This document shows, piece by piece, positions 7,318-29,813 of a stretch of DNA of 30,675 nucleotides; position 1 is the first letter of the stretch; each line of letters opens with the position of its first letter. The notes beneath the pieces were generated by a model. That model was not told where the DNA came from. It did no database searches and saw only the letters and a list, made by a program, of their open reading frames with translations. The stretch is from a virus (Duplodnaviria > Heunggongvirae > Uroviricota > Caudoviricetes): IMG/VR virus record IMGVR_UViG_2721755724_000001. One strand, given 5' to 3'. A program made the translations under genes and the position numbers.

Positions 7318-7644
7318 GTGTTGATTTCAGGTCATGAGGTAATTTTAAGGAGGACTTGTGGCAAAAGTTTTTACACAGGAAGAGCGGGAAAAAATTAAAG
7401 AGCAGGTGGTCGAACTTGTGCGCCAGAGCGGTCGCGAGACATTACGACAGTTGGAAGCTAAAACAGGTGCGACAAGATATCTGATGAGCATTCTTGCCAG
7501 AGAGCTGGTTGCCAGTGGTTATGTATACAACTCCGGCTACGGGTTATTCCCGTCTGAACAGGCACGAAAGGACTGGCAAAATGCCCGCAAAAAACTCTCT
7601 AGGGCGAAGGTGAAGAAACCCGCTGTGGTTGATTGGATTTGCCC

Positions 7645-8550
7645 CTATATTTCCAGACATCTGTTATCACTTAACCCATTACAAGCCCGCTGCCGCAGAT
7701 ATTCCCGTGGCGAGCGATAACCCAGCGCACTATGCGGATGCCATTCGTTATAATGCTCGAACGCCTCTGCAAGGTTCTTTGCTGCCGTTAACCCGTCTGG
7801 TTTGGGCATGATACTGATGTAGTCACGCTTTATCGTTTTCACGAAGCTCTCTGCTATTCCGTTACTCTCCGGACTCCGCACCGCCGTGTTCTTCGGTTCA
7901 AGTCCCAACATCCGGGCGAACTGGCGTGTTTCATTAGCCCGGTAGCATGAACCATTATCCGTCAGCCACTCCACTGGAGACGACGGAAGATCGTTGCCGA
8001 AGCGGCGTTCCACCGCTCCCAGCATGACGTCCTGTACTGTTTCACTGTTGAAGCCGCCGGTAGTGACCGCCCAGTGCAGTGCCTCACGATCACAGCAGTC
8101 CAGCGCGAACGTGACACGCAGTCTCTCTCCGTTATCACAGCAGAACTCGAACCCGTCAGAGCACCATCGCTGATTGCTTTCTTTCACGGCCACTCTGCCT
8201 GTATGTGCCCGTTTCGATGGCGGTACAGCAGGTTTTCGCTCAAGCAACAGCGCATTCTGGCGCATGATCCGGTAAACACGTTTGGCATTGATCGCAGGCA
8301 TACCATCAAGTTCTGCCTGTCTGCGAAGCAGCGCCCATACCCGACGATAACCATACGTGGGCAGCTCTCCGATAACATGGTGTATACGGAGAAGCACATC
8401 CGTATCATCAGTGTGACGACTGCGGCGGCCATCCATCCAGTCATCGGTTCGTCTGAGAATGACGTGCAACTGCGCACGCGACACCCGGAGACAACGGCTG
8501 ACTAAGCTTACTCCCCATCCCCGGGCAATAAGGGCGCGTGCGCTATCCAC
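7645..8550 (-). CDS. insD: IS2 transposase OrfB (InsD), full length
   Basis: 301-aa ORF ending ...[37 protein letters not shown]; normally expressed as an InsCD frameshift fusion. Confidence 0.9.
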
Positions 8551-8873
8551 TTTTTTGCCCGTCCATATTCAACGGCTTCTTTGAGGAGTTCATTTTCCAT
8601 CGTTTTCTTGCCGAGCAGGCGCTGGAGTTCTTTAATCTGCTTCATGGCGGCAGCAAGTTCAGAGGCAGGAACAACCTGTTCTCCGGCGGCGACAGCAGTA
8701 AGACTTCCTTCCTGGTATTGCTTACGCCAGAGAAATAACTGGCTGGCTGCTACACCATGTTGCCGGGCAACGAGGGAGACCGTCATCCCCGGTTCAAAGC
8801 TCTGCTGAACAATTGCGATCTTTTCCTGTGTGGTACGCCGTCTGCGTTTCTCCGGCCCTAAGACATCAATCAT
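8508..8873 (-). CDS. insC: IS2 transposase OrfA (InsC)
   Basis: 121-aa product [26 protein letters not shown]... matches IS2 InsC. Confidence 0.9.
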
Positions 8874-9273
8874 CTGTTCTCCAATGACTAGTCTAAAAAC
8901 TAGTATTAAGACTATCACTTATTTAAGTGATATTGGTTGTCTGGAGATTCAGGGGGCCAGTCTATTGATCCGGACCTTATCTGGTCACTACCTGATGGAG
9001 AAATACGTCGCTACGACAGTCGTCTAAACATAATCTGTCGCGAGTGCCGGAAGAGCGAAGTTATGCAGCGCATACTGGCATTTTATCAGTGAAATTTTCG
9101 TTATTTATAGACGTAACTAGATTAAAGAGCATTAGTTCAGATGTGAATTGACATTTTCACGGCACAGGATTGAGCTAGCGTGGTTGTCTGCTTTGCGTCA
9201 AAAGCAGATATTACCAGATTTAGACATCTATTCCCGATAGCCCTGCTCTGATGCCACACTCTGTGCTATTTTC

Positions 9274-9735
9274 ATGACCCCAATAAAAATATTTATGACT
9301 ATTGCTGATTTCAAACGGCCTAAATTGGAGCTCCCAAACGGGGCAAACAAACTACTACTGCACTCTTGCTGTGCTCCATGTTCCGGTGAAGTGATGGAGG
9401 CGCTTCAGGCCTCGGGAATCGACTATACCATCTTTTTCTACAACCCGAACATTCATCCTCAGAAAGAGTATTTAATTCGTAAGGATGAGAATATTCGCTT
9501 TGCTGAACAACACGGCGTGCCATTTATTGATGCTGATTACGACACAGACAACTGGTTTGAACGTGCCAAAGGAATGGAATGGGAACCCGAGAGGGGGATC
9601 CGTTGTACCATGTGTTTTGACATGCGTTTTGAGCGGACAGCGCTGTACGCTGCTGAAAATGGTTTCAGTGTGATCAGCAGTTCACTGGGCATTTCACGCT
9701 GGAAAAATATGCAGCAGGTTACCGTCACTGGATAA
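9274..9735 (+). CDS. QueH-family (DUF208, epoxyqueuosine reductase-like) protein, short form
   Basis: 153-aa ORF with the family-typical [12 protein letters not shown] block plus FFYNPNIHP and RCTMCF motifs; ends after ...[13 protein letters not shown], shorter than the canonical enzymes as I recall them. Confidence 0.55.
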
Positions 9736-9810
9736 TCTCAGTCAGATTGCCTTACTCCGAACGCCCACCGCGTCCGTCCCGTACATTCCAGCAACGCATC
9801 TGGAGGTAAC

Positions 9811-10860
9811 GTGCGGGTATTACTTCAACCTGTTCTGGTACCGGAACTCGGGCTGGTGGTCGTTAAGCCGGGCCGTGAATCCATGCCGGTATTCCACAAT
9901 ACCCGGGTACTGGTGGAGCCGGAACCGAAAAGCATGCGTAATCTGCCGTCCGGGGTCGTTCCTGCCGTTCGCCAGCCGCTGGTGGAAGACAAAACATTGC
10001 TGCCGTTTTTCAGTAACGCACGGGTAATTCGTGCTGCTGGTGGTGCTGGTGCATTGTCTGACTGGCTGTTGCGCCATATTAAATCCTGCCAGTGGCCACA
10101 CGGCGATTATCATCACAGCGAAACCGTTATTCACCGTTATGGTACCGGCGCAATGGTGTTGTGCTGGCACTGCGACAACCAGCTGCGTGACCAGACATCC
10201 GAATCACTCGAGCAACTTGCTCATCAAAACCTGTCAGCATGGATGATTGACGTCATCGGTCACGCAATAAGCGGTACGCAGGAGCGTGAATTATCTCTGG
10301 CTGAATTATCCTGGTGGGCGGTCCGCAATCAGGTGGCGGACGCGCTACCGGAAGTGGTATTACGTCGCTCGCTGGGATTACCAGCGGAAAAAAACTGCTC
10401 GGTGTACCGCGAAAGCGACATCGTACCGGGAGAGCAGACCGCCACCAGCATATTGAAACAGCGCACAAAAAATCTTGCACCGTTGCCTCACGCCCACCAG
10501 CAACAAAACCCATCACAGGAAAAGACGGTGGTAAGCATCACCGTTGATCCAGAGTCTCCGGAATCTTTCATGAAGCTGCCTAAACGTCACCGTTGGGTTA
10601 AGGAGAAATACACACGCTGGGTTAAGACACAGCCGTGTGCTTGCTGCGGTATGCCAGCCGACGATCCGCATCATCTGATTGGTCACGGGCAGGGCGGAAT
10701 GGGAACCAAAGCACATGATCTCTTTGTGTTGCCTTTGTGCAGAAAGCATCACGACGAGTTGCATACGGATACCGTGGCATTTGAAGAGAAGTATGGCTCC
10801 CAACTGGAGCTGATTTTTCGATTTATCGATCGCGCGCTGGCAATTGGTGTGCTGGCCTAA
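9811..10860 (+). CDS. DUF968-family prophage protein (YdfU-like)
   Basis: 349-aa ORF, GTG start with GGAGG Shine-Dalgarno; Cys/His-rich C-terminus ([21 protein letters not shown]...CRKHHDELH); position just upstream of Q as in Qin. Confidence 0.75.
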
Positions 10861-10877
10861 TTTTGTGGAGTAAGTTG

Positions 10878-11255
10878 ATGCGTGATATTCAGATGGTTCT
10901 TGAGCGTTGGGGGGCATGGGCGGCTAATAATCATGAAGATGTGACCTGGTCGTCCATTGCCGCCGGTTTTAAGGGATTAATTCCTTCAAAAGTAAGATCT
11001 CGTCCGCAATGCTGTGACGATGACGCGATGATCATTTGTGAATGTATGGCTCGCCTGAAAAAAAACAACAGCGATTTACATGATTTATTGGTGGACTATT
11101 ATGTCGGCGGCATGACTTTTATGGCGCTTGCACGTAAGCATGGGCGATCTGATTGTTGGGTTGGCAGGATGCTCCAGAAAGCTGAGGGCGTAGTGGAGGG
11201 CATGCTGATGGTGTTGGATCTCCGATTGGAGATGGATGCTGATTGTTCGAAATAA
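10878..11255 (+). CDS. Late-gene antiterminator Q (QuuD-type)
   Basis: 126-aa product [33 protein letters not shown]... closely matches the DLP12 QuuD antiterminator as recalled; GGAG Shine-Dalgarno upstream. Confidence 0.85.
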
Positions 11256-11289
11256 TTAAAGGAAAAGTTGCTGTCTGATTTTCATTAGT

Positions 11290-11353
11290 CTAACATTTTA
11301 AATGTTGGAATCGCAACGTAGTTATTATCATATAACAGCTTGTTTCCTGATTT
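11290..11353 (+). promoter_or_regulatory. Candidate late promoter (PR'-like) and Q-utilisation region
   Basis: TTGGAA...TATCAT/TCATAT promoter-like hexamers immediately after Q and before an intrinsic terminator; assignment by position and motif only. Confidence 0.3.
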
Positions 11354-11383
11354 AGCCAGCCTCCCCAAAGGCTGGTTTTTTTC
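11354..11383 (+). terminator. Rho-independent terminator (tR'-like)
   Basis: AGCCAGCC-TCCCCAAA-GGCTGG hairpin followed by a 7-T run. Confidence 0.6.
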
Positions 11384-11410
11384 TAATAAGTATCATTTCG
11401 GGTGGGGATT

Positions 11411-11935
11411 TTATTGTTTAACCCATAATAGTTCATTGACATTGAATCCCAACTTTTGAGCGGTACGCACATAGTCTGCTTTTACATTATCTGGAATAGT
11501 TTGGGTCCTTGCCAGAATCCATAGGTATTCTCTGTTCGGACCACTGACAAGAGCATACTTATACTCATCATCCAGTTTGATTACATTATAGCCACCATAG
11601 AAGGGGCCAAAAAACGAAACTTTCAACGCTGCAGTTTTAGTATCTCCAGTAAAGTATGCTTTACCTTCGCTCTCGCTCCATTTGTTTTTCGTTGGATCGT
11701 ATCCACGGTTAAGTACGCGAATCCCTCCGTCGTTCCGTTTTTCATAAGTAGCGCTGACCTGTTCCAGACCACGTTCGAACCAGTTCTCGAGGCGAGCTAT
11801 TTCATACCATTTTCCGAGGTAGCGGTTGGCGTCAAAATTTGTAATCGGCTGCACACCTTTAGGTGGTGTCGGGGCCTTACATGCTATAAGAGTGAAAGAG
11901 AGTGCAATGCCAGTCAACACAGGCCATAACTTCAT
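11411..11935 (-). CDS. blc: Bacterial lipocalin (Blc-family outer-membrane lipoprotein)
   Basis: 174-aa ORF with lipoprotein signal peptide (LIAC lipobox) and strong similarity to E. coli Blc throughout (NFDANRYLGKWYEIARLENWFERGLE..., KVSFFGPFYGGYNVI, YLWILART). Confidence 0.8.
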   Translation of the reverse strand: MKLWPVLTGIALSFTLIACKAPTPPKGVQPITNFDANRYLGKWYEIARLENWFERGLEQVSATYEKRNDGGIRVLNRGYDPTKNKWSESEGKAYFTGDTKTAALKVSFFGPFYGGYNVIKLDDEYKYALVSGPNREYLWILARTQTIPDNVKADYVRTAQKLGFNVNELLWVKQ

Positions 11936-12127
11936 AATAAATCCTGTACTTTTGATAGTTGAGAGTAAGTATGAAAGATAGATGAGTACGACCGATCACT
12001 TAAAGAACTTTCCTACTATATTAGGAATAGTCAATAACAGAAAAATTGTCAGTGATGAAGCCAGAAAGGCAATTTAGTCCGTGCACTACAAAGTTTATGT
12101 GTTAATGAATTAGTCAAGGGGGAGGAA

Positions 12128-13087
12128 ATGATAAAAAAACCTGTGATTGGGATCAGCGGTTGTTTGGGCGGTTCTGCTGTTCGTTTTGATGGTGGTCACA
12201 AAAGAGATGACTTTTTAATGGACAAATTAGTGGAATGGGTAACATTCAGACCAGTATGTCCGGAAATGGCTATAGGGCTGCCAGTTCCGCGTCCTGCTCT
12301 ACGACTTGTGCGCTCGAAGCAAGGAAATATACGGATGTGTTTCAGCCACGACCAGAATGAGGATGTGACAGAGAGAATGACAGAGTTTAGTCGTTCTTAT
12401 ATGGACAAATTAAAGGATGTATCGGGTTTTGTGGTTTGTGCTAAATCTCCCAGCTGTGGCATGGAGCGCGTGCGTGTCTATGATGAAAATGGTAATCGAG
12501 GTCGTAAAGATGGAGTGGGACTATTTACGAGCACTTTGATGGAAAAGTTTTCCTGGCTACCGGTTGAAGAGGATGGGCGATTACATGATCCAGTGCTTCG
12601 TGAGAATTTTATTGAAAGAGTTTTTGCTTTGCATGAGCTCAATCACCTTTACAAGGAGAAATTATCAAGAAGAGAGTTATTAGCTTTTCATAGTCGTTAT
12701 AAGCTTCAGTTGTTGGCGCATAGCCAGGCAGGCTATAAAGATATGGGACCATTTGTGGCTGCAATACACGAGTGGGCGGACCTTGAATCATACTTTGAGG
12801 TGTATCGTGATAATCTGATGGCGATTCTCAGAAAACCAGCATCACGTAAAAATCACACGAATGTGCTGATGCATATACAGGGGTATTTTAGTAATTACTT
12901 AAGTACACGCCAGCGTAAAGAGTTGAGCGAGGTTATACTTAACTATCGCTTTGGCACATTGCCTCTTCTTGCGCCGTTGACTCTGCTGAAGCATTATCTG
13001 GGTGAGTATCCTAATGATTACTTGCTTACACAGAATTACTTCGATCCCTATCCGGAAGAACTGGCTCTAAGACTGATGGTGAATTAA
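12128..13087 (+). CDS. Two-domain DUF523 (TudS-like thionucleobase desulfidase family) / DUF1722 (YbgA-like) protein
   Basis: 319-aa ORF with GGGGGAGG Shine-Dalgarno; N-terminal Cys triad (GISGCLGG, PVCPE, AKSPSCG) typical of DUF523 Fe-S proteins; C-terminal half resembles YbgA. Confidence 0.65.
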   Translation: MIKKPVIGISGCLGGSAVRFDGGHKRDDFLMDKLVEWVTFRPVCPEMAIGLPVPRPALRLVRSKQGNIRMCFSHDQNEDVTERMTEFSRSYMDKLKDVSGFVVCAKSPSCGMERVRVYDENGNRGRKDGVGLFTSTLMEKFSWLPVEEDGRLHDPVLRENFIERVFALHELNHLYKEKLSRRELLAFHSRYKLQLLAHSQAGYKDMGPFVAAIHEWADLESYFEVYRDNLMAILRKPASRKNHTNVLMHIQGYFSNYLSTRQRKELSEVILNYRFGTLPLLAPLTLLKHYLGEYPNDYLLTQNYFDPYPEELALRLMVN

Positions 13088-13385
13088 CTGTATGCGATAT
13101 CATCTGAAAGTGATGAGTTCCTGTATGCAGGATATTTACAATCGTAAAAACTACGCTATGATGCTCATAGTGTCAGTTTTTATAAAAATCCTGTTCACGC
13201 TAAAGAAAACATTGAGATGCAATTTAATGTTGGTAAACATACCAGCCCCAAAAGATTTTATTCAATCTGTTTTTATATGAAGATATTTCAAGTGAATATA
13301 AAGAGCATATAATATTATTATTGCACGCAGGGTGATGCTGCCAACTTACTGATTTAGTGTATGATGGTGTTTTTGAGGTGCTCCA

Positions 13386-13661
13386 GTGGCTTCTGTTTCT
13401 ATCAGCTGTCCCTCCTGTTCAGCTACTGACGGGGTGGTGCGTAACGGCAAAAGCACTGCCGGACATCAGCGCTATCTCTGCTCTCACTGCCGTAAAACAT
13501 GGCAACTGCAGTTCACTTACACCGCTTCTCAACCCGGTACGCACCAGAAAATCATTGATATGGCCATGAATGGCGTTGGATGCCGGGCAACTGCCCGCAT
13601 TATGGGCGTTGGCCTCAACACGATTTTACGTCACTTAAAAAACTCAGGCCGCAGTCGGTAA
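13386..13661 (+). CDS. insA: IS1 InsA
   Basis: 91-aa product [37 protein letters not shown]... matches IS1 InsA. Confidence 0.95.
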
Positions 13662-14084
13662 CCTCGCGCATACAACCGGGCAGCGATGTGATTGTCTGCG
13701 CTGAAATGGACGAACAGTGGGGCTACGTAGGTGCTAAATCACGTCAGCGCTGGCTGTTTTACGCGTATGACAGGATACGGAGGACGGTTGTGGCGCACGT
13801 CTTCGGTGAACGCACTCTGGCCACACTGGAGCGTCTTCTGAGCCTGCTGTCGGCCCTTTGACGTGGTGATATGGATGACGGATGGCTGGCCGCTGTATGA
13901 ATCCCGCCTGAAGGGAAAGCTGCACGTAATCAGCAAGCGATATACGCAGCGAATTGAGCGGCATAACCTGAATCTGAGGCAGCACCTGGCACGGCTGGGA
14001 CGGAAGTCGCTGTCGTTCTCAAAATCGGTGGAGCTGCATGACAAAGTCATCGGGCATTATCTGAACATAAAACACTATCAATAA
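13580..14084 (+). pseudogene. insB: IS1 insB, frameshifted
   Basis: InsB-homologous sequence is split into two frames around 13855-13865 (...LSLLSAL* then [15 protein letters not shown]...), consistent with a 1-bp insertion relative to canonical IS1. Confidence 0.75.
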
Positions 14085-14271
14085 GTTGGAGTCATTACCT
14101 GCACGCAGCTATTATAATATAACAGATTAGTTTAATGATTTGTTTTTTGTGAGTTAAACACATGGTTTTATAGTTGTGATGCAATGAGATTTTCCTTATT
14201 GTTGAACTGGCGAATATTGATTTTCCACCTATACTTACCTGGTGTAACCCCAATGATATCAGGTGGATAAT

Positions 14272-14985
14272 ATGCCATACATATGTTCTATCATTTTGGT
14301 GTTGAACTCGTTTGGTGTCCGAATTGGTAAAGAAGATATTTTGTTTAAAAAAGGAAATGCTGTCCTCATTGAATACAATTTAAAAGATCTTTTTTCGTCA
14401 AATACAGATCATCTAATGATCGTAGATATTGAGGAGAAAACAGTTAATGATTTCTTTAAAAACTACACACTCTCACCTTTTTCTGTAAGAAGGTTTTATC
14501 CGTCATACTTGATAGTAGAATGTGAAGATTTTTCATTGTTAAGGAACTTGGTTGCATGCTTGAATTGTGATAGCAAAACCGTGGATGTAGTTAGAAATCA
14601 AATATCACTTGCATGTCTTGCTGTCTTATCTTCAGAGAAAATAGTGCAAAGTTTTTTGTTCGGAAGTCTTAATAGCTTAGGTTGTAAAGTTAAGGCTATT
14701 ATTCACTCGGATATCTCAGCGTCATGGAGACTTTGTGATATATCTTCAAGATTATATATGAGCGAGAGTTTGTTAAAAAGAAAATTAAAAGACGAAGGAT
14801 TATCGTTTAGTAAATTAATTCTTGAAGAACGAATGATGATGGCGCAAAGATTATTGATCTACAGTAACCATACTGTCGGCAAGGTGGCGGGAATATGCGG
14901 GTATGACAATGCATCATATTTTGTAAGTGTTTTTAGAGGATATTTTGGTGTGCCTCCGCACCAATATTTATCAAGATTTTCTTAG
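14272..14985 (+). CDS. AraC-family transcriptional regulator (AppY/Rns-like)
   Basis: About 237 aa from the ATG at 14272 (AGGTGG Shine-Dalgarno); C-terminal AraC helix-turn-helix (AGICGYDNASYFVSVFRGYFGVPPHQY); visibly AT-rich gene. Confidence 0.8.
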   Translation: MPYICSIILVLNSFGVRIGKEDILFKKGNAVLIEYNLKDLFSSNTDHLMIVDIEEKTVNDFFKNYTLSPFSVRRFYPSYLIVECEDFSLLRNLVACLNCDSKTVDVVRNQISLACLAVLSSEKIVQSFLFGSLNSLGCKVKAIIHSDISASWRLCDISSRLYMSESLLKRKLKDEGLSFSKLILEERMMMAQRLLIYSNHTVGKVAGICGYDNASYFVSVFRGYFGVPPHQYLSRFS

Positions 14986-15052
14986 AAGATATGATGTGAT
15001 GGCATTTTATAAAGTTATTTTTTGAAGTGTAAGATTATACGATATTTTTAGC

Positions 15053-15086
15053 TACGCCAGAATAATTGCTGGCGTTTTTTTTTTTG
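15053..15086 (+). terminator. Rho-independent terminator after the AraC-like gene
   Basis: CGCCAG-AATAATT-GCTGGCG hairpin followed by an 11-T run. Confidence 0.6.
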
Positions 15087-15175
15087 AATAGATGTTCGGG
15101 CCTTACGCTAATGTAACTTCTTTCCTTCTTCGAACCAAACCGTGTACACCATCCGTTATCTGCGGAGGTGAGGCT

Positions 15176-15391
15176 ATGAAATCCATGGATAAGTTAACAA
15201 CGGGCATCGCCTACAGCACCTCTGCAGGCAGTGCTGGCTACTGGTTTTTACAGTTGCTCGATAAAGTCACGCCCTCACAGTGGGCGGCAATAGGTGTATT
15301 GGGTAGTCTGGTATTTGGCATGCTGACGTATCTGACAAACCTTTATTTCAAGATTAAAGAAGACAGGCGTAAGGTTGCGAGAAGAGAGTAA
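15176..15391 (+). CDS. Holin, S21-type pinholin
   Basis: 71-aa product [60 protein letters not shown]... closely matches phage 21 S; dual-start MKSM motif; GGAGGTGAGG Shine-Dalgarno. Confidence 0.85.
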
Positions 15392-15395
15392 TCCA

Positions 15396-15947
15396 ATGAC
15401 TCAAGACTATGAACTGGTTGTGAAAGGAGTTCGCAATTTTGAGAATAAAGTGGCGGTAACTGTAGCCTTACGGGACAAAAAACACTTTGACGGTGAAATT
15501 TTTGACCTGGACATCTCGCTGGACCGTGTTGAAGGTGCCGCGCTGGAGTTTTATGAGGCAGCAGCCAGAAGGAGCATCAGACAGGTCTTCCTGGATGTTG
15601 CTGCCGGGTTATGTGAAGGGGATGAGCAGTCGCCGGAAAAGCGCCCCATAATTTTAGAGGCGCAGAATGTGTGGATAACCTACAAAGGAAAGCTACCGGG
15701 AAGAATTACTGGTTCTCTGAAGACGCCACCGACGGCATTGCGGTCAGAAAAAGATGATATTGAATCGCCCATTGAAAAACTGGAGGGCAGCGTCGCTGAT
15801 CTGAATAAAAAATTGTCGGTGCTGATTCCTTCTGAAGATGAAAAAAAACGCCGCGATGAGCAGTTTGCGGCGTTTTACGATTATTGCATTGAAGTTACTC
15901 GCAGGAATTTTGTGAAGATTTTTGAGGAGGGTAAATCTCTTCAGTAA
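15396..15947 (+). CDS. Hypothetical acidic protein (183 aa) between holin and endolysin
   Basis: ATG 5 nt after the holin stop; no transmembrane segment or lysozyme motifs evident; family not recognised. Confidence 0.5.
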   Translation: MTQDYELVVKGVRNFENKVAVTVALRDKKHFDGEIFDLDISLDRVEGAALEFYEAAARRSIRQVFLDVAAGLCEGDEQSPEKRPIILEAQNVWITYKGKLPGRITGSLKTPPTALRSEKDDIESPIEKLEGSVADLNKKLSVLIPSEDEKKRRDEQFAAFYDYCIEVTRRNFVKIFEEGKSLQ

Positions 15948-16155
15948 GCTTATTGGCGGACGCTGCAATTAATTCAGGAAGGTCCGCAAGGTCATCTGTC
16001 AGTGGATATGATGAAAAATCGGCGGCAGTTCTGTTAAGAAGCGCTTTAACTAATTCCTTTTCCTTCTCCGGCAACAAGTTGATTAGAGCTACGACTGCTT
16101 GCCTGAGTGCGATTAAATCAGCAAAAGTTTGTTTAGGTAGATTTGTGTAATCCAT
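15895..16155 (-). CDS. Hypothetical small acidic protein (86 aa), convergent with the preceding ORF
   Basis: ATG-initiated ORF with a weak Shine-Dalgarno; 3' end overlaps the 183-aa ORF by 53 bp; could be spurious. Confidence 0.3.
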   Translation of the reverse strand: MDYTNLPKQTFADLIALRQAVVALINLLPEKEKELVKALLNRTAADFSSYPLTDDLADLPELIAASANKLTEEIYPPQKSSQNSCE

Positions 16156-16268
16156 AGTCGCCTCTGTGTTTATCAGATTGACATCCTCCTCCCGCCAGTG
16201 CCCATCACTGGTGAGGTAAGATTTAACATATCCGGGGATTTGAAGCCGATAAATCCTGATAAATATCC

Positions 16269-17296
<1,028 letters not shown>

Positions 17297-19980: not shown

Positions 19981-20273
19981 TCTGTTTAGTATTAGCATCA
20001 ATTTCTCATCAGATGCTATTCAACAATACAAATTACCCATAAACCTCGTTTTTACGGGGTTTTGTTATATTTAAACATTACCGAATAGGTATAAATCTCG
20101 ATTGTCGATGGTATTGGTTGTGTGACAATACCTAGTCTTTCCGGTATGCCTGAAGAGAATACAAACGACAGATTATGTAAGGGAAACGCGCTGAATCTTT
20201 AACTCTTTCATGCTGAGTGATTTGACGTTATATTTTTAGCCGTAAGTGAAGAGCAAACGCATGGAGCGACAAA

Positions 20274-20480
20274 ATGCATAAAGATCAATACACTGATGCC
20301 CCCTCCCAGGAGCAGGTTCGTGTAAAAACTATGCTTAATAGCACCATTTCGATGGGTTACCCGGATGTTGTAATTGCATGTATAGAACATCAAGTGTCTC
20401 TGGAAGCATTCAGGGCAATTGAGGCCGCGTTAGTAAAGCACGATAAGAATACGAAGGATTATTCCCTGGTGGTTGACTGA
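20274..20480 (+). CDS. Hypothetical small protein (68 aa)
   Basis: ATG with GGAGCG Shine-Dalgarno-like sequence; lies where Qin carries ydfO/ynfO; family not recognised. Confidence 0.35.
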
Positions 20481-21031
20481 TCACCATAACTGCTAACCAT
20501 TCTGACCATTTCACAAGTGACAGAGTCAATATCGTATTCTGTCACTGTCAGGCTAATACAGCAATGCAATTCAACTACAGCAATGCCTCGTATTTAGGTG
20601 AATTTACAATATCGTCCAGTTCGGATGCCGGCTGCATTTCTGAAGATAAGGCATTTCGGTTCTCGTATTTTCCCCTCATGCTCGTCAGTCCTGCGCGTAG
20701 TAAGAAACAGGACACTCACACTAATTTGTGTGGGCATGCTGTGATGTCCTTCTGAATTATCCCCATGCCATTATGTAAAGCTCTGTTTCAGATGCTCGTC
20801 ACGGTTGTCAGGCTGTCGGGTCCTCCCAGTGGGGGTCCCTGCCACGGGGCGGGAGCGTCGCGGAAAAAGGCTAGTTTTTGCATTTCCATGGCGGCGGCAG
20901 CATGTTTGGTAATTTATTGATAATTAAAAAGTTATTTCTCTTTTCAGCTGTACAATATTTTTTTCTCCCTGTCATTAGACTAGTTTGCAATTAATTGAAA
21001 TATATAAATAAACCTGATTTTCACCTGCCAG

Positions 21032-21588
21032 ATGGAGTTGCTTATGTCAAATGTGAGCGGGATCGGTGATGCTTATTACTGGAGTGTTTTTAAAATCGCC
21101 GAGGCCTTTGGGCTTCACCGGGACACAGTAAAAAAACGGCTCCTCGCGGCCAACACTCCTGTGGCTGCGACTGTCAGGGGGAACCCCGTTACCGGTTTGT
21201 CGCCTTAACCGATTACGACCGTTTTCCGGAGAATATCGACAGCGAGGGTGATGGTTTCTCCCAGGCCTCAAAACGTACCACCACATTTATGTCCGCCGGG
21301 ATGACTCTGGTGGAGAGCTCGCCGGGACGTGACATCTGCGACAGCAAATGGCGACGTAAGTCGCCTCATGAAGCGCCACCGACGACTGGTATTCTTTCCC
21401 TTTACAATCGTGGTGACCGCCGCCGCTGGTACTGGCCATGTCCGCACTGCGGTGAATATTTTCAGCCAGCCATGGATGCCATGACCGGCTACCGTAATGA
21501 ACCGGATCCCTTTAAAGCCAGTGATGCGCTGTATGCCGGTATGGAACGGGCAGACGCTGACGTTCGTGCAGGACCGACCATCAGATAA
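21032..21588 (+). pseudogene. Remnants of the terminase region: short small-subunit-like N-terminal ORF and an internal large-subunit (GpA-family-like) fragment
   Basis: 59-codon ORF (MELLMSNVSGIGDAYYWSVFKIAEAFGLHRDTVKKRL...) then a frame containing WYWPCPHCGEYFQP, similar to the CPHCGE motif of lambda gpA; no ATPase domain is present. Confidence 0.4.
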
Positions 21589-23968
21589 GGTGTGGACCTA
21601 TAACCGCAGTAATGTGGTGATGCCGGATGATGGCGCGCCGTTCCGCTACAGCTTCAGCGCCCTGAAGGACCGCCATAATGCCGTTGAGGTGAACTGGATT
21701 GACCCGAACAACGGCTGGGAGACGGCGACAGAGCTTGTTGAAGATACGCAGGCCATTGCCCGTTACGGTCGTAATGTCACGAAGATGGATGCCTTTGGCT
21801 GTACCAGCCGGGGGCAGGCACACCGCGCCGGGCTGTGGCTGATTAAAACGGAACTGCTGGAGACGCAGACCGTGGATTTCAGCGTGGGTGCTGAAGGGCT
21901 TCGCCATGTACCGGGCGATGTCATTGAAATCTGCGATGATGACTATGCCGGTATCAGCACCGGCGGGCGCGTGCTGGCGGTAAACAGCCAGACCCGGACG
22001 CTGACGCTCGACCGTGAAATCACGCTGCCATCTTCCGGCACCACGCTGATAAGCCTGGTTGACGGGCAGGGGAGTCCGGTCAGCGTGGAGGTTCAGTCCG
22101 TCACCGACGGCGTGAAGGTAAAAGTGAGCCGTGTTCCTGACGGTGTTGCTGAATACAGCGTATGGGGGCTGAAGCTGCCGACGCTGCGCCAGCGACTGTT
22201 CCGCTGCGTGAGTATCCGTGAGAACGACGACGGCACGTATGCCATCACCGCCGTGCAGCATGTGCCGGAAAAAGAGGCCATCGTGGATAACGGGGCGCAC
22301 TTTGACGGCGACCAGAGCGGCACGGTGAATGGTGTCACGCCGCCAGCGGTGCAGCACCTGACTGCCGAAGTCACCGCAGACAGCGGGGAGTATCAGGTAC
22401 TGGCCCGCTGGGACACGCCGAAGGTGGTGAAGGGGGTGAGCTTTATGCTTCGCCTGACCGTGGCAGCGGACGACGGCAGTGAGCGGCTGGTCAGCACGGC
22501 CCGGACGACAGAAACCACATACCGCTTCACGCAACTGGCGCTGGGACGGTACACGCTGACAGTCCGGGCGGTAAATGCGTGGGGACAGCAGGGCGATCCG
22601 GCGTCGGTATCGTTCCGGATTGCCGCACCGGTAGCACCGTCGCGGATTGAGCTGACGCCGGGCTATTTTCAGATAACTGCCACGCCGCATCTTGCGGTTT
22701 ATGATCCGACGGTACAGTTTGAGTTCTGGTTCTCGGAAACGCGGATTACCGATATCAGGCAGGTTGAAACCACAGCCCGCTACCTTGGTGCGGGGCTGTA
22801 CTGGATAGCCGCCAGTATCAATATCAAACCGGGCCATGATTATTACTTTTATATCCGCAGTGTGAACACCGTTGGCAAATCGGCATTCGTGGAGGCTGTT
22901 GGTCAGCCGAGTGATGACGCATCCGGCTATCTGGATTTTTTCAAAGGCGAGATAGGGAAAACCCATCTGGCTCAGGAGCTGTGGACGCAGATTGATAACG
23001 GTCAGCTTGCGCCTGACCTGGCTGAAATCAGGACATCCATTACGGATGTCAGCAATGAAATCACACAGACCGTCAATAAGAAACTGGAAGACCAGAGTGC
23101 AGCGATTCAGCAGATACAGAAGGTTCAGGTTGATACAAATAATAACCTGAACAGCATGTGGGCCGTGAAACTGCAGCAGATGCAGGACGGACGCCTTTAT
23201 ATTGCGGGTATCGGTGCCGGTATTGAGAATACGCCAGCAGGAATGCAGAGTCAGGTGCTGCTGGCGGCAGACAGGATTGCGATGATTAATCCTGCGAATG
23301 GCAACACAAAGCCGATGTTTGTTGGTCAGGGTGATCAGATATTCATGAACGACGTGTTCCTGAAACGCCTGACGGCTCCCACCATTACCAGCGGCGGTAA
23401 TCCTCCTGCATTTTCCCTTACACCGGACGGGCGACTGACGGCGAAAAATGCGGATATCAGTGGCAGTGTGAATGCGAACGCCGGGACGCTCAACAATGTC
23501 ACGATAAATGAAAACTGTCGGGTTCTGGGAAAACTGTCTGCGAACCAGATTGAAGGCGATCTCGTTAAAACAGTGGGCAAAGCTTTCCCCCGGGACTCCC
23601 GTGCACCGGAGCGGTGGCCATCAGGGACCATTACCGTCAGGGTTTATGACGATCAGCCGTTTGACCGGCAGATTGTTATTCCCACGGTGGCGTTTCGTGA
23701 CGCTAAACATGAGCGGGAGAATAACGATATTTATTCGTCATGCCGCCTGATAGTGAAGAAAAACGGTGCTGAAATTTATAACCGTACCGCGCTGGATAAT
23801 ACGCTGGTTTATACAGGTGTTATTGATATGCCTGCCGGTCACGGTCACATGACGCTGGAGTTTTCGGTATCAGCGTGGCTGGTAAATGACTGGTATCCCA
23901 CAGCCAGTATCAGTGATTTGCTGGTTGTGGTGATGAAGAAATCCACAGCAGGTATCAGTATCAGCTGA
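21551..23968 (+). pseudogene. Host specificity protein J (central tail fibre), C-terminal roughly two-thirds only
   Basis: Near-identity over hundreds of residues to lambda J from ...[29 protein letters not shown]... to the C-terminus; the apparent N-terminus of the 823-aa ORF is out-of-frame terminase-region sequence. Left boundary approximate (about 30 bp). Confidence 0.8.
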
Positions 23969-23987
23969 ATTTTATAACCCATATGCG

Positions 23988-24015
23988 GGCGCCATTTCTG
24001 GCGCCTTTTTTATTG
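23988..24015 (+). terminator. Rho-independent terminator after J
   Basis: GGCGCCA-TTTC-TGGCGCC hairpin followed by a T-run. Confidence 0.6.
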
Positions 24016-24035
24016 CAGAAAAGCGAGAGGTAATT

Positions 24036-24635
24036 ATGCGTAAAGTTTGTGCAGCCATTTTGTCCGCAGCCATCTGTCTGGCCGTATCCGGTGCGCCTGC
24101 ATGGGCGTCTGAGCAGCAGGCCACACTGAGCGCAGGGTATCTTCATGCCTCGACGAACGTTCCCGGTAGTGATGATCTGAACGGGATTAACGTGAAATAC
24201 CGTTATGAGTTTACGGACACGCTGGGGCTGATTACGTCATTCAGTTATGCCAACGCTGAAGATGAGCAAAAAACGCATTACAGCGATACCCGCTGGCATG
24301 AGGATTCCGTGCGTAACCGCTGGTTCAGCGTGATGGCGGGGCAGTCTGTGCGCGTGAATGAATGGTTCAGCGCGTATGCGATGGCGGGTGTGGCTTACAG
24401 CCGTGTGTCGACTTTCTCCGGGGATTATCTCCGCGTAACTGACAACAAGGGGAAAACGCACGATGTGCTGACCGGAAGTGATGACGGTCGCCACAGCAAC
24501 ACGTCTCTGGCGTGGGGGGCTGGCGTGCAGTTTAACCCGACCGAATCCGTGGCCATTGATATTGCTTATGAAGGTTCCGGCAGTGGTGACTGGCGCACTG
24601 ACGGTTTCATCGTGGGTGTCGGTTATAAATTCTGA
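24036..24635 (+). CDS. lom: Lom-family outer-membrane protein (Ail/Lom/PagC beta-barrel)
   Basis: 199-aa ORF with signal peptide and an Ail/Lom-type beta-barrel pattern ending ...GFIVGVGYKF; position after J as in lambda. Confidence 0.9.
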   Translation: MRKVCAAILSAAICLAVSGAPAWASEQQATLSAGYLHASTNVPGSDDLNGINVKYRYEFTDTLGLITSFSYANAEDEQKTHYSDTRWHEDSVRNRWFSVMAGQSVRVNEWFSAYAMAGVAYSRVSTFSGDYLRVTDNKGKTHDVLTGSDDGRHSNTSLAWGAGVQFNPTESVAIDIAYEGSGSGDWRTDGFIVGVGYKF

Positions 24636-24662
24636 TTAGCCAGGTAACACAGTGTTATGACA

Positions 24663-24689
24663 GCCCGCCGGTTCAGGCGGGTTTTTTTG
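24663..24689 (+). terminator. Rho-independent terminator after lom
   Basis: CCCGCC-GGTTCA-GGCGGG hairpin followed by a 7-T run. Confidence 0.6.
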
Positions 24690-25029
24690 TGGGGGGAATA
24701 TGGCAGTACGGATTTCAGGTGTACTGAAAGATGGCGCAGGTAAGCCGATACAAAACTGCACCATTCAGCTAAAGGCCAGGCGCAACAGCACCACGGTGGT
24801 GGTGAACACAGTGGCCTCAGAAAACCCGGATGAAGCCGGGCGTTACAGCATGGACGTTGAGTACGGTCAGTACAGCGTTATTCTGTTGGTGGAAGGCTTC
24901 CCGCCATCGCATGCCGGGACCATCACCGTGTATGAAGACTCACAACCGGGTACGCTGAATGATTTTCTCGGTGCCATGACGGAGGATGATGTCCGTCCGG
25001 AGGCACTGCGCCGCTTTGAACTGATGGTG

Positions 25030-25700
25030 GAAGAGGTGGCGCGTAACGCGTCCGCAGTGGCACAGAACACGGCAGCCGCGAAGAAGTCAGCCAGTGATGC
25101 CCGCACATCAGCCCGTGAGGCGGCAACCCATGCGACTGATGCTGCGGACTCCGCACGCGCAGCCAGCACGTCAGCCGGACAGGCCGCGTCGTCGGCTCAG
25201 TCAGCGTCTTCCAGCGCAGGAACGGCATCAACAAAGGCTACTGAAGCATCAAAAAGTGCTGCCGCTGCAGAGTCTTCAAAAAGCGCGGCAGCCACCAGTG
25301 CCGGTGCAGCGAAAACGTCAGAAACGAATGCCGCAGCATCACAAAAATCTGCGGCCACTTCTGCATCCACCGCGACCACGAAAGCGTCAGAAGCTGCCAC
25401 CTCAGCCCGGGATGCGTCGGCTTCAAAAGTGGCGGCAAAATCATCAGAAACGAGCGCAGCCTCGAGCGCCGGCAGTGCAGCTTCCTCGGCAACGGCGGCA
25501 GGAAATTCCGCGAAGGCCGCAAAAACGTCTGAGATGAATGCGGATAACAGCGCACAGGCGGCAGCAGACTCACAAACTGCATCGGCAAATTCCGCGACAG
25601 CAGCCAAAAAATCAGAAACCAACGCGAAAAATAGTGAGTCAGCAGCAAAGGTCAGCGAAACCAACGCTAAAGCGTCAGAGAACAAGGCGAAAGAATATCT
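25030..25700 (+). repeat. Ala/Ser/Thr/Lys-rich low-complexity repeat region within stf
   Basis: About 200 codons of short degenerate SA..A..S/KSA repeats, as in lambda Stf; generates long spurious ORFs on other frames and strands. Confidence 0.7.
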
Positions 25701-27612
25701 CGACAAGGTCGGGGGACTCGTCAGCCCGATGACGCAATACGATTGGCCCGTTGTTACTGGTAATGAGTCTTTTTACATAAAGATCGCGAAACTTTCCGAT
25801 CCCGGAAGCAACAATTGCCATGTAACGCTAATGGTTACTAACGGCGGTGACTACGGCTCCCCTTACGGAAACATTGACTTTATCGAGATCTCGGCGCGCG
25901 GTCTGCCTTCTTCGCTTACTGCTGATAATGTATCTCGTTACCTGAGTATACGCCGTTTAGGGCCAACCGGGCTAATCAATAGCATGCAAATGCGTTACGG
26001 CCTGGTTAAAGATGATGGCTTTATTGAGGTTTGGGCCTTCCAGCGTGCATTTATCAACGGCGCAAAGGTTGCGGTACTGGCGCAGACGGCACGCACGGAA
26101 TTATACATTCCAGACGGATTTGTTAAGCAAACCGCCGCGCCTTCTGGATATGTTGAAAGCCCCGTTGTAAGGATTTACGACCAGTTAAACAAGCCGACTA
26201 AAGCAGATTTGGGTCTTTCTAATGCTATGCTTACAGGCGCTTTCGGTCTTGGCGGTAGCGGGATATCAACAAACGGCAAGATGAGCGATGTAGAGATCTT
26301 AAAAGCTCTGCGTGACAAAGGTGGTCATTTCTGGCGCGGTGATAAGCCGACCGGAAGCACGGCGACCATTTATAGCCACGGTTCTGGTATATTCTCGCGG
26401 TGCGGCGATACGTGGTCAGCGATCAATATCGACTACTCAACCGCGAAGATTAAGATCTATGCCGGCAACGATGCCCGGCTTAACAACGGGACTTTTAGCA
26501 TCAATGAGCTATACGGCTCGGCAAACAAGCCGTCGAAATCGGATGTTGGACTTGGCAACGTAACGAACGATGCGCAGGTAAAAAAAACCGGCGATACAAT
26601 GACCTGTGACTTGACAATCAAAAAAGGTACACCGTCAGTCTTCCTGCGGGCAGACAGTGGAGTCACCGCTTTGCGGTTTTATACTGGCGATAACACAGAG
26701 CGCGGCATAATCTATGCTGGTCCTAACACTGATTCGCTTGGCGAAGTTCGCATCAGGGCAAAGACAGCAGGGGGGACATCAGGAGGGGATCTTGTTGTTC
26801 GTCACGACGGGAGGGTTGAAGTCCGTGATCTCACAGTAGCGTATAAAATTAAAAGCAGAACGATTGAGATTGCAAATACCGACACTGACTCATCGGCAAC
26901 TACGCTCAGCATCTATGGAGTACAGCACACGCCGTTGGTTTTAACGCGTTCTGGTTCTTCTGAAAATGTGTCCATTGGGTTTAAGTTAGACAACATGAAC
27001 CCAAAGTATCTTGGAATTGATACTAATGGGGATCTGGCTTTTGGTGAGAGTCCTGATCAGAAACAAAACAGCAAATTGATCACGCAAGCGAAACTCGACA
27101 AGGGATTAACGATTGGTGGTCAACTGGCTTTCAAAGGTACGACAGCGTTTTCAGCCGTTGCTACGTTCAGTGCCGGGATAGCAGGAGCCATCGAGCCGGA
27201 AAACATTGACGGCCAGACGGTTAATCTTAACAACCTGACCATCATCAAGTCAGATGCCGGGGCAGTTAAATACTATATTTGTCCATCCTCTGCAGGTGGT
27301 GCAAATATTACCAATAAGCCTGACGGCATAGCCGGTAACTTTTTGCTCCGTGTAGAGTCGACTCGTAAGGTTAGGGATTCAGATTATGCGAACATGCAAA
27401 CGCTGATTAACAGCGACACAAAACGTATATACGTTCGCTTTGTTGTTAATGGAAACTGGACAGCGTGGAGTCAGGTTGTTGTTTCCGGATGGAATCAGGA
27501 TATAACTGTCAGGTCGTTAACTAGACTGGCCCCCTGAATCTCCAGACAACCAATATCACTTAAATAAGTGATAGTCTTAATACTAGTTTTTAGACTAGTC
27601 ATTGGAGAACAG

Positions 27613-27978
27613 ATGATTGATGTCTTAGGGCCGGAGAAACGCAGACGGCGTACCACACAGGAAAAGATCGCAATTGTTCAGCAGAGCTTTGAACCGGGGA
27701 TGACGGTCTCCCTCGTTGCCCGGCAACATGGTGTAGCAGCCAGCCAGTTATTTCTCTGGCGTAAGCAATACCAGGAAGGAAGTCTTACTGCTGTCGCCGC
27801 CGGAGAACAGGTTGTTCCTGCCTCTGAACTTGCTGCCGCCATGAAGCAGATTAAAGAACTCCAGCGCCTGCTCGGCAAGAAAACGATGGAAAATGAACTC
27901 CTCAAAGAAGCCGTTGAATATGGACGGGCAAAAAAGTGGATAGCGCACGCGCCCTTATTGCCCGGGGATGGGGAGTAA
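27613..27978 (+). CDS. insC: IS2 transposase OrfA (InsC), copy 2
   Basis: Identical 121-aa product to copy 1. Confidence 0.9.
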
Positions 27979-28757
27979 GCTTAGTCAGCCGTTGTCTCCG
28001 GGTGTCGCGTGCGCAGTTGCACGTCATTCTCAGACGAACCGATGACTGGATGGATGGCCGCCGCAGTCGTCACACTGATGATACGGATGTGCTTCTCCGT
28101 ATACACCATGTTATCGGAGAGCTGCCCACGTATGGTTATCGTCGGGTATGGGCGCTGCTTCGCAGACAGGCAGAACTTGATGGTATGCCTGCGATCAATG
28201 CCAAACGTGTTTACCGGATCATGCGCCAGAATGCGCTGTTGCTTGAGCGAAAACCTGCTGTACCGCCATCGAAACGGGCACATACAGGCAGAGTGGCCGT
28301 GAAAGAAAGCAATCAGCGATGGTGCTCTGACGGGTTCGAGTTCTGCTGTGATAACGGAGAGAGACTGCGTGTCACGTTCGCGCTGGACTGCTGTGATCGT
28401 GAGGCACTGCACTGGGCGGTCACTACCGGCGGCTTCAACAGTGAAACAGTACAGGACGTCATGCTGGGAGCGGTGGAACGCCGCTTCGGCAACGATCTTC
28501 CGTCGTCTCCAGTGGAGTGGCTGACGGATAATGGTTCATGCTACCGGGCTAATGAAACACGCCAGTTCGCCCGGATGTTGGGACTTGAACCGAAGAACAC
28601 GGCGGTGCGGAGTCCGGAGAGTAACGGAATAGCAGAGAGCTTCGTGAAAACGATAAAGCGTGACTACATCAGTATCATGCCCAAACCAGACGGGTTAACG
28701 GCAGCAAAGAACCTTGCAGAGGCGTTCGAGCATTATAACGAATGGCAATCCGCATAG
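27936..28757 (+). pseudogene. insD: IS2 insD, copy 2, frameshifted near the 3' end
   Basis: Copy 2 reads GAATGGCAATCCGCA where copy 1 reads GAATGGCATCCGCA (one extra A), giving ...EHYNEWQSA* (273 aa) in place of the 301-aa product. Confidence 0.8.
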
Positions 28758-29813
28758 TGCGCTGGGTTATCGCTCGCCACGGGAATATCTGCGGCAGCGG
28801 GCTTGTAATGGGTTAAGTGATAACAGATGTCTGGAAATATAGGGGCAAATCCATTAACCACATCTAGTCCGGTAAAATCTGGCGGAGGGCGAATTGATGT
28901 CCTTGGAAGCACGTCAGACTATAGCAAAATGGATTGCTTTGTACGTGGGTTTGATAGCACCGGTAATTCTCTCGCGTGGGCGTTGGGTTCATCAGCCGGC
29001 GTAAGTAAGATGCTGTCGCTAAAAAATTTCTTTAGCGGAGCTGAGATACTGTTAAATGGTAATGACGGCACGGTTCAACTCAAAACAGGTGCTGTTAACG
29101 GGGCTACAGCGCAGGCGCTCACTATCAACAGGAATGAGGTTAACTCAACTGTTGATTTAACCCTTACAAAACAATCAGGGACTGGCAATCGTTTTGTTTT
29201 ACAGAACTCAGGTAATGCAGAACTACCGTTTTCTGTCAGGGTGTGGGGTTCCAGTACTCGACAAAACGTTTTTGAGGTTGGCACGTCTGCTGCGTATCTG
29301 TTTTATGCGCAAAAAACGTCAGCAGGCCAGTTGTTTGATGTAAATGGCGCTATTAATTGCACAACGCTGAATCAGTCATCAGACCGCGACCTTAAAGACG
29401 ATATTCTCGTTATCAGCGACGCGACGAAAGCAATCCGTAAAATGAACGGATACACCTACACGCTCAGGGAAAACGGGATGCCTTATGCTGGCGTTATTGC
29501 ACAGGAAGTAATGGAGGCGATACCAGAAGCTGTGGGATCGTTTACTCATTATGGTGAAGAGTTGCAAGGTCCGACCGTTGACGGCAACGAGCTACGCGAA
29601 GAAACGCGCTATCTTAATGTTGACTACGCCGCCGTGACGGGCTTACTTGTTCAGTTCGCCCGTGAAACAGATGATCGCGTTACCGCGCTGGAAGAGGAAA
29701 ACACAACGCTACGTCAAAATCTGGCAACAGCAGACACCCGGATCAGCACTCTGGAAAATCAGGTAAGCGAACTGGTTGCACTTGTCCGGCAGTTAACAGG
29801 AAGCGAACATTGA

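Follow-up and report, generated by a model that had tools for sequence, protein, structure and literature searches.

Two independently acquired, inverted IS2 copies in a Qin-like cryptic prophage, one of them carrying a single extra base

The window analyzed here, a stretch of 30,675 nt (IMG/VR record IMGVR_UViG_2721755724_000001, Caudoviricetes), is a cryptic lambdoid prophage resembling Qin that has integrated between rspB and ydfJ, and annotation and Pfam searches place int, xis, dicB, DicF, Q, essQ, rrrQ, rzpQ, cspI, gnsB, and pinQ at this locus. The integration site is shared with the Qin (Kim) cryptic prophage of Escherichia coli K-12 and its relatives, as are the Qin hallmark genes dicB, DicF, ydfD, ydfU, Q, essQ, rrrQ, and rzpQ, along with cspI, ynfN, gnsB, pinQ, and ydfK. 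Head and tail genes have been deleted in both; in the window the tail fibre is also broken, and the prophage is defective. Unlike Qin, the window version harbors four IS elements (two IS2, one IS1, and one IS3), while Qin-type relatives have other IS combinations at other sites; these differing sets and positions suggest that the Qin-like locus collects IS insertions freely. Cryptic prophages are well known as sites where IS insertions pile up without cost, and a paired, inverted IS2 arrangement in a decayed prophage is ordinary and already known.

The two IS2 copies lie in inverted orientation and bracket ∼18.5 kb, as proposed in the initial annotation and confirmed here by a repeat search, direct reading, and a script. 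Copy 1 spans 7634..8964 (minus strand; 1331 bp) and is intact, and copy 2 spans 27522..28853 (plus strand; 1332 bp). In copy 1 the terminus at 7634 is IRR and that at 8964 is IRL; in copy 2 IRL is at 27522 and IRR at 28853. The intervening segment measures 18,557 bp and the whole unit 21,220 bp. Perfectly complementary arms join positions 7739-8964 with 27522-28747 (1226 nt) and 7634-7739 with 28748-28853 (106 nt), and because the arms overlap by one base, the copies are identical but for one extra base in copy 2; identity of 100% between two 1.33-kb repeats is far beyond chance. The count of differences between the copies is therefore one, an extra A at IS position 1227, where copy 1 reads GGCATCC and copy 2 reads GGCAATCC (window 28747/28748). 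By script and IS2 comparison, positions 28747..28748 (plus strand) read AA, whereas all other IS2 elements have one A there.

IS2 is a common jumping gene of E. coli and a textbook element. Copy 1 corresponds to IS2 (IS3 family, IS2 group) of E. coli without any difference, and copy 2 differs from it by the one extra A (1332 bp; OrfAB of 381 aa). In RefSeq genomes, PGAP applies the label "IS3-like element IS2 family transposase" to elements that are recorded as 100% identical to both copies. The ends found here, 5'-TAGACTGG and AAATCCA-3', agree with the published IRL (5'-TAGACTGG..TTAA) and IRR (5'-TGGATTTG..TTAA) (PMC3299598), and they align as imperfect terminal repeats, as expected for the ∼41-42 bp repeats of an element of ∼1331 bp. 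The slippery motif A AAA AAG (A6G) for the -1 frameshift between orfA and orfB occurs at IS position 409 in both copies, and PGAP labels identical IS2 copies "programmed frameshift." In copy 1, orfA (insC; 8508..8873, minus strand) begins with an ATG at IS position 92 and encodes 121 aa with an HTH_Tnp_1 domain (PF01527), and orfB (insD; 7645..8550, minus strand; ORF list and Pfam) encodes 301 aa with HTH_21, rve, and full-length rve_3 domains. With the A6G site at 8550-8556, the OrfAB fusion has 409 aa and includes D240, D306, and E342, a DDE triad in the rve core that accompanies the N-terminal HTH.

Each copy interrupts a prophage gene and is flanked by its own 5-bp direct duplication, located by direct reading and a script. 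Copy 1 is bordered by TTGAT (7629..7633 on the left and 8965..8969 on the right) and sits downstream of the replication genes, within a DUF977 gene. The 5' part of this gene (7358..7720, plus strand), recognized through Pfam (PF06163) and the annotation of relatives, matches profile positions 1-82 of 134, and its frame continues into the IS; in NT1F25 the gene is intact and encodes 132 aa. Copy 2 is bordered by TTAAC (27517..27521 and 28854..28858) and divides a tail-fibre gene that is likewise intact in NT1F25 (1257 aa). The 5' part of the tail-fibre gene (24700..27537, plus strand; 945 aa, with the Pfam domain phage_tail_N and the NT1F25 annotation as guides) is read as stopping at a TAG given as the first three bases of copy 2. 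The 3' part (28827..29813, plus strand) contains a Peptidase_S74 chaperone domain by Pfam, and its open frame starts at an ATG within the right end of IS2.

Between the copies (8970..27516), BLAST colinearity, annotation, and Pfam identify native prophage DNA. The segment begins with a queH remnant, ydfU, the Q antiterminator, a lipocalin gene, a ybgA-like gene, IS1, and an HTH gene; it continues with essQ, ydfR', rrrQ, rzpQ, cspI, ynfQ, an IS3 in ynfN', and gnsB; and it ends with terminase remnants fused to a J remnant, lom, and the 5' part of the tail-fibre gene. The description of this interior as Q, cargo, lysis, and tail genes in the initial annotation was right. Gene order and orientation are the same as in IS2-free relatives, in comparisons by BLAST with NT1F25 and eight other genomes.

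These relatives also bear on how the pair arose. An empty site 1 occurs in 259 genomes, and E. coli HS is among those that lack an insertion at site 2. In NT1F25 both sites are empty and the DNA is colinear with the window over the whole 18.5 kb; its empty site 1 holds a single TTGAT, and a single TTAAC is present at the empty site 2 of both NT1F25 and 2017-03-3CC. The empty sites and colinearity of NT1F25 indicate that the pair represents two simple insertions into native prophage DNA, and together with the matched duplication at each copy they uphold the earlier proposal of independent insertions as opposed to a composite transposon. Two inverted copies of one IS around a DNA segment are also what is seen in the composite transposons Tn10 and Tn5, and the outward-pointing, donor-competent IRR ends would suit such a unit, or an intramolecular replicative transposition of copy 1 that gave rise to copy 2 and inverted the segment. 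Unlike in Tn10 and Tn5, however, there is no common outer duplication around a foreign interior: the outer flanks do not match (TTGAT versus TTAAC), a separate direct duplication flanks each IS, and the "cargo" consists of resident prophage with the order and orientation of relatives that lack both copies. Intramolecular replicative transposition would instead leave unmatched flanks and an inverted segment. Given the duplications, the empty sites, and the colinearity with NT1F25, we reject both origins and regard either as extremely improbable.

Transposition of IS2 proceeds via a figure-of-eight and a minicircle, and IRR alone serves as donor end (PMC3219604; PMC3299598). On this basis we infer that IS2 inserted twice, on separate occasions, by copy-out/paste-in transposition through these intermediates, with a 5-bp duplication made each time; one insertion would have hit the DUF977 gene and the other the tail-fibre gene. 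Both insertions are old enough to occur across a small E. coli lineage, and the original, non-inverted arrangement persists in the window. Ordinary paired IS2 insertions in a Qin-like prophage, forming a passive substrate for inversion, are the best explanation overall, and we assign this reading a probability of roughly 0.9.

The distribution of the insertions is consistent with shared ancestry followed by loss. The left junction of copy 2 is present in all seven complete genomes that carry copy 1, and further public assemblies carry each IS2 junction. Copy 2 has nevertheless been destroyed by deletion in six of eight close relatives, from which it follows that the IS2 pair is not conserved. 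Strain 127 was considered as a carrier of copy 2 at the same site and rejected, as it has a 131-bp remnant of copy 2 and, 42 bp further on, a separate new IS2 insertion with its own CTGAG duplication.

Homologous recombination between the copies had been suggested to invert the whole intervening segment, and this idea stays theoretical: as identical inverted repeats the copies make inversion possible in principle, but no trace of it appears in genomes or long contigs. Short junction motifs were discarded as a test, since recombination within the IS leaves every IS-flank junction unchanged, and linkage across the whole IS is the only informative signal. For the recombinant linkage, a chimeric query was built from two 800-bp pieces, the left flank of copy 1 and, in reversed orientation, the left flank of copy 2. 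This linkage was found in 0 of 5,426 complete genomes, with no record covering both halves. The negative has little power, since both complete copies survive in only about five public assemblies and consensus sequences hide low-frequency subpopulations. Long contigs spanning either copy show the parental linkage in all cases and no inverted isomer: the copy 1 junctions co-occur in five of five patterns summarizing 24 long contigs, and the copy 2 junctions co-occur in L011/L025, L026, L027, and EC190486. Only the parental linkage, as opposed to both orientations among isolates, is thus present in the genomes and contigs searched, and the matched duplications at each copy place the window itself in the parental state.

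A more ambitious reading would make the IS2 pair a recombination-driven invertible switch, in which RecA flips the 18.6-kb segment with its Q, lysis, cold-shock, and tail genes and thereby creates two subpopulations differing in expression. At 1.33 kb each, the inverted repeats match at essentially 100%, and there are precedents for IS-mediated, RecA-dependent structural heterogeneity: one report describes it for IS2-like elements in Burkholderia thailandensis (PMC9946442), and another describes prophage-mediated inversions and large chromosomal rearrangements in E. coli O157:H7 (PMC8743559). Inversions between IS copies are, moreover, invisible to short-read surveys (PMC5009759). The present arrangement resembles IS- and prophage-mediated inversions such as those of O157:H7 in offering long identical inverted repeats recombinable by RecA, but it differs in that inversion here is only a possibility, with no isomer in public assemblies and a parental window. 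Besides the lack of an inverted isomer among the 5,426 complete genomes and the long contigs spanning either copy, the reading is countered by the loss of copy 2 in most close relatives and by the defective state of the prophage, with its deleted head and tail genes and broken tail fibre. In mutation-accumulation lines, furthermore, most IS recombination involved copies separated by 1-3 kb, with IS2 responsible for only 2 of 98 events (PMC5009759). We consider such a switch very improbable, and equally so the related proposal that the pair flips the segment at a measurable rate, giving a RecA-dependent structural polymorphism within the population that is hidden in consensus assemblies, with copy 2 as a transposase-dead but recombination-competent arm. 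Under the favored reading of ordinary paired insertions, the 1.33-kb inverted repeats, 18.6 kb apart, would be a passive substrate for RecA-dependent inversion, and nothing points to inversion at a detectable level or to any function for it.

The extra A in copy 2 shifts the reading frame after OrfAB residue 378 (InsD residue 270) and creates a new tail, QSA-stop. The truncated orfB (insD; 27936..28757, plus strand; ORF list and Pfam) encodes 273 aa, as had been stated earlier, instead of 301, and OrfAB has 381 aa versus 409 aa in copy 1, with the last 31 residues (379-409) lost. The rve_3 match correspondingly ends at profile position 56 of 67 (Pfam), and the catalytic triad is intact while helix 6, within residues 379-409, is missing. 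The catalytic active site of the IS2 transposase spans residues 236-398, with P389 and E391 in helix 6; replacing E391 alone (E391K) weakens binding and abolishes transposition (PMC3219604). Judged from the sequence, the loss of residues 379-409, including helix 6 of the catalytic core, would render copy 2 inactive and non-autonomous if the base is real. The truncation is thus present in the sequence, but it is doubtful as biology, the allele being unique. The further suggestion that copy 2 depends on copy 1 for transposition is also doubtful, because transposases of the IS3 family strongly prefer to act in cis; that of IS911 works ∼200-fold better in cis than in trans (PMC5009743).

Whether the base is real was approached by comparison. 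The extra A was absent from all 17,696 IS2 places searched and from the six other assemblies with the same copy 2 insertion whose sequence extends to this base, and the truncated 273-aa InsD had no exact-sequence record in the public gene index. A second frameshift of the same kind occurs in the window IS1 (13331-14099), an insertion private to the window. At 769 bp, this element has one C too many, at 13856; the extra base is private and puts insB out of frame. The best match among 74,842 IS1 places, at 99.9% identity, has 768 bp. By comparison, the ∼26 kb of unique DNA contains 0 indels relative to strains 127, w264, and STS73-1-E, and if indels are placed uniformly, the chance of both landing in the 4.7 kb of IS DNA is 0.023. 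Private +1 bases in IS2 and IS1 and none in unique DNA suggest uncorrected assembly errors in repeats, and single-base indels restricted to multi-copy repeats are a recognized weak point of polished long-read assemblies. On this sequence pattern, we lean toward explaining the extra A as an error of assembly or polishing that went uncorrected in a multi-copy repeat; an artefact is no less likely than a genuine mutation. Several observations count against it. Long homopolymers are the classic context of long-read errors, and neither extra base lies in one (A to AA, CC to CCC). Real genomes commonly contain inactive IS copies that bear private lesions, and IS1 is very abundant in the lineage (at least 40 places in related genomes), so that a defective IS1 could have been mobilized in trans.

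A real and very recent private mutation, leaving copy 2 non-autonomous and movable only by transposase supplied in trans from copy 1 or another IS2, is a tenable though less favored account. The extra A is present in the window sequence, both ends and the rest of copy 2 are intact and would make it a competent substrate, and there is no other sign of poor sequence quality, unique DNA being free of indels. With a divergence of ∼1-3 × 10^-4 from the nearest relatives, the prior for an indel in 1.3 kb would be a few percent, which is not negligible. Against these points stand the uniqueness of the base among IS2 places and all other carriers of the copy 2 insertion, the second private frameshifting +1 base in the privately inserted IS1 of the same window, which would be unlikely under real mutation, and, for rescue in trans, the cis preference described above. 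The frameshifts of IS2 copy 2 and IS1 are accordingly not to be taken as marks of evolved non-autonomous elements until reads confirm them.

The arrangement carries little biological weight, and its practical value lies in annotation, where the DUF977 and tail-fibre genes are to be treated as IS-disrupted pseudogenes. Their products recur in public data: the 120-aa DUF977/IS2 junction product is found in 95 blocks of public assemblies, the identical 945-aa tail-fibre product in at least 15 public contigs, and the 328-aa tail-fibre junction product in 32 blocks of public assemblies.

A repeat search of the window found a single inverted-repeat pair, in two perfectly complementary arms, one of 1226 nt (7739-8964 with 27522-28747) and one of 106 nt (7634-7739 with 28748-28853). 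These arms overlap by one base, so the two copies of IS2 are identical except for one extra base in copy 2. Reading of the element ends, supported by a script, placed copy 1 on the minus strand at 7634-8964 (1331 bp), flanked by TTGAT duplications (7629-7633 and 8965-8969), and copy 2 on the plus strand at 27522-28853 (1332 bp), flanked by TTAAC (27517-27521 and 28854-28858), with 18,557 bp of DNA between them. The sole difference, GGCATCC in copy 1 versus GGCAATCC in copy 2, falls at IS position 1227 (window 28747/28748), and insD stays open over 301 aa in copy 1 versus 273 aa in copy 2. The initial annotation had described two inverted copies bracketing about 18.5 kb, distinct duplications, and an extra A truncating InsD to 273 aa; each of its factual statements was correct, and the alignment that it proposed for counting differences between the copies returned the extra A only.

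Both copies are 100% identical to RefSeq elements labelled by PGAP as "IS3-like element IS2 family transposase" (WP_088895425.1, with a programmed frameshift). The orfA product (121 aa) has an HTH_Tnp_1 domain, that of orfB has HTH_21, rve, and rve_3 domains, and the slippery site A AAA AAG yields a 409-aa OrfAB fusion with D240, D306, and E342. The ends in the window, 5'-TAGACTGG... and ...AAATCCA-3', agree with the published IRL and IRR (PMC3299598), and all IS2-defining features that can be tested by sequence are present.

A Qin-like cryptic lambdoid prophage, integrated at a site flanked by rspB and ydfJ, makes up the window. The genes run in the order int, xis, exonuclease, ydfD, dicB, DicF RNA, a YdaT-family gene, and an O-like replication gene; then DUF977, queH', ydfU, Q, lipocalin, a ybgA-like gene, an HTH gene, essQ, and ydfR'; then rrrQ, rzpQ, cspI, ynfQ, ynfN', gnsB, and terminase remnants fused to a J remnant; and finally lom, the tail fibre, a tail-fibre-assembly remnant, and pinQ. 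The DUF977 gene is interrupted by copy 1 and the tail-fibre gene by copy 2; in the related strain NT1F25, where both are intact, they encode 132 aa and 1257 aa, respectively.

That the two insertions were independent, as had been proposed, is borne out by the separate 5-bp duplication of each IS2, their differing outer flanks, the empty sites in other genomes, and the colinearity of NT1F25. A query for the empty first site, from which copy 1 had been taken out together with one of its two TTGAT repeats, was matched in one piece in 259 genomes, and many genomes, E. coli HS among them, lack an insertion at the copy 2 site. In NT1F25, both sites are empty, with one copy of each pentamer, and the sequence runs colinearly with the window from end to end without a change of strand; the copies are thus separated by 18.5 kb of resident prophage DNA. 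A composite transposon is thereby ruled out, given this resident interior, the duplication belonging to each copy, and the different outer flanks. Intramolecular replicative transposition as the source of copy 2 is likewise excluded, since it predicts unmatched flanks and an inverted interior.

Among RefSeq-complete genomes carrying copy 1, the left junction of copy 2 is present in seven of seven, and the whole of copy 2 is kept in EC190486 only. In the other six (127, w264, STS73-1-E, NRZ96606, KMi012, and KFu024), all that is left of copy 2 is the initial 131 bp of the element, joined via CGGCGTA microhomology to the tail-fibre gene ∼149 bp past the original insertion, so that the deletion removed the rest of the element plus ∼149 bp of flank. 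These remnants lie, for example, at 22484-22614 of the w264 locus (L003) and within 26983-28486 of the strain 127 locus (L002), the latter interval including a later, complete IS2 that inserted 42 bp past the remnant and is flanked by a separate CTGAG duplication; the others are in loci L006-L009. In exact-protein look-ups, the copy 1 junction product was found in 95 blocks of public assemblies (24 with contigs >1 Mb) and the copy 2 right-junction product in 32. Because the junctions recur across genomes and assemblies, both insertions are inherited lineage markers, and the inverted pair no longer exists in most sequenced members of the lineage. In one assembly, CP170311.1, window 9062-13037 is replaced by ∼1.2 kb without a match to the window (5705-6947 of its locus, L022), so the HTH gene and the holin come soon after the copy 1 IS2; a deletion linked to some other inserted element probably accounts for the difference.

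Inverted IS copies can recombine homologously, a textbook process that is invisible to short reads (PMC5009759), and the suggestion that it would invert the bracketed segment is legitimate as a possibility; as an observation it is unsupported. The window itself is in the parental orientation, because the duplications of each copy match. We built a chimeric query from the left flank of copy 1 followed by that of copy 2 in reverse, which an inverted isomer would cover fully as two pieces 1.3 kb apart; no such record occurred among 5,426 complete genomes, a weak constraint given that few genomes retain both copies. In long contigs reached via the junction proteins, the two junctions of copy 1 are always together (L020-L024, summarising 24 contigs), as are those of copy 2 (L011/L025, L026, and L027). 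In one study, IS recombination was found predominantly between copies 1-3 kb apart, with IS2 accounting for 2 of 98 events (PMC5009759). A hidden RecA-driven inversion polymorphism is very improbable.

The extra A in copy 2 could be a real mutation or an error of assembly. A 66-nt probe centred on it had no exact match across 17,696 IS2 places in 5,863 records, the truncated InsD is absent from the public gene index, and six further assemblies that reach this base in the copy 2 insertion are wild type, as is EC190486. The window also holds an IS1 (13331-14099, 769 bp) between the ybgA-like gene and the HTH gene, flanked by 9-bp duplications TGCACGCAG (13322-13330 and 14100-14108) and present at this site in none of the other genomes examined. 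In this IS1, insB is frameshifted by one added C at 13856 (GGCC to GGCCC); among 74,842 IS1 places, the best match is 768 bp long and differs at that base alone. Two private +1 insertions are thus present in the window, each within a multi-copy IS element and each disrupting a transposase, one of them within a very recently inserted element, while ∼26 kb of unique DNA has no indels versus strains 127, w264, and STS73-1-E. Under uniform indel placement, the probability of both falling in IS DNA is 0.023, and polishing of hybrid or long-read assemblies fails in repeats. On these grounds we put the probability that the extra A is an assembly artefact at about 60%; a real mutation, against which both the uniqueness of the base and the second private insertion weigh, we hold at somewhat under even odds.

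Read as it stands, the extra A alters OrfAB after residue 378, replacing a 31-residue tail with QSA and giving 381 aa versus 409 aa; the DDE triad is retained and the rve_3 match stops at profile position 56 of 67. The IS2 catalytic active site spans residues 236-398, with the conserved P389 and E391 on helix 6, and E391K alone leaves DNA binding weaker and abolishes transposition (PMC3219604). OrfAB lacking residues 379-409 would very probably be inactive. The initial annotation held that copy 2 probably depends on copy 1 or other copies for transposition. IS3-family transposases have a strong cis preference, tied to co-translational binding, and for that of IS911, activity in cis exceeds activity in trans by ∼200-fold (PMC5009743); efficient rescue by copy 1 would hence be unlikely even if copy 2 were truly defective.

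Qin-family cryptic prophages collect IS elements in many strains, and the window is such a prophage with IS2 twice; the arrangement is no departure from known biology. The prophages of relatives carry IS1, IS2, IS3, and other IS3-family elements at positions other than those of the window, and in E. coli strain 2017-03-3CC (AP027783.1) this prophage harbours another inverted IS2 pair, at other sites (11863-17243 of its locus, L004). That pair, in ydfR and beside ynfN, brackets ∼2.7 kb (ydfR', rrrQ, rzpQ, cspI, and ynfQ) in parental orientation. The window also has an IS3 (18228-19485, 1258 bp) with a 3-bp duplication (AAT), inside a ynfN pseudogene that was frameshifted already. The IS3 of NT1F25 matches it at 100% identity, and this site lacks an IS3 in every related genome.

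Head and tail-shaft genes are missing at 21289-23968, where small and large terminase remnants are fused straight onto an N-terminally truncated J gene in an 823-aa open frame, a deletion common to all relatives examined. Of the mismatches to the closest complete genomes, 68-70 are concentrated in ∼1 kb of this J (tail-tip) remnant (23000-24000); outside the cluster (about 22000-24000), the prophage is >99.97% identical to them. The cluster resembles a patch brought in by recombination, within the region for receptor binding at the C terminus, and GCA_025154715.1, a short-read assembly, has just two mismatches across it. Rfam matches to the DicF antisense RNA (4775-4826, minus strand, 72.5 bits) and to a cspA-type thermoregulator 5' leader upstream of cspI (17502-17899, plus strand, 109 bits) are expected in a Qin-like prophage. 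At 29860-30675, the pinQ serine invertase is intact (196 aa, Resolvase and HTH_7), the adjacent tail-fibre-assembly gene is left as a 126-nt remnant, and the Pin-type invertible tail-fibre segment appears degenerate.
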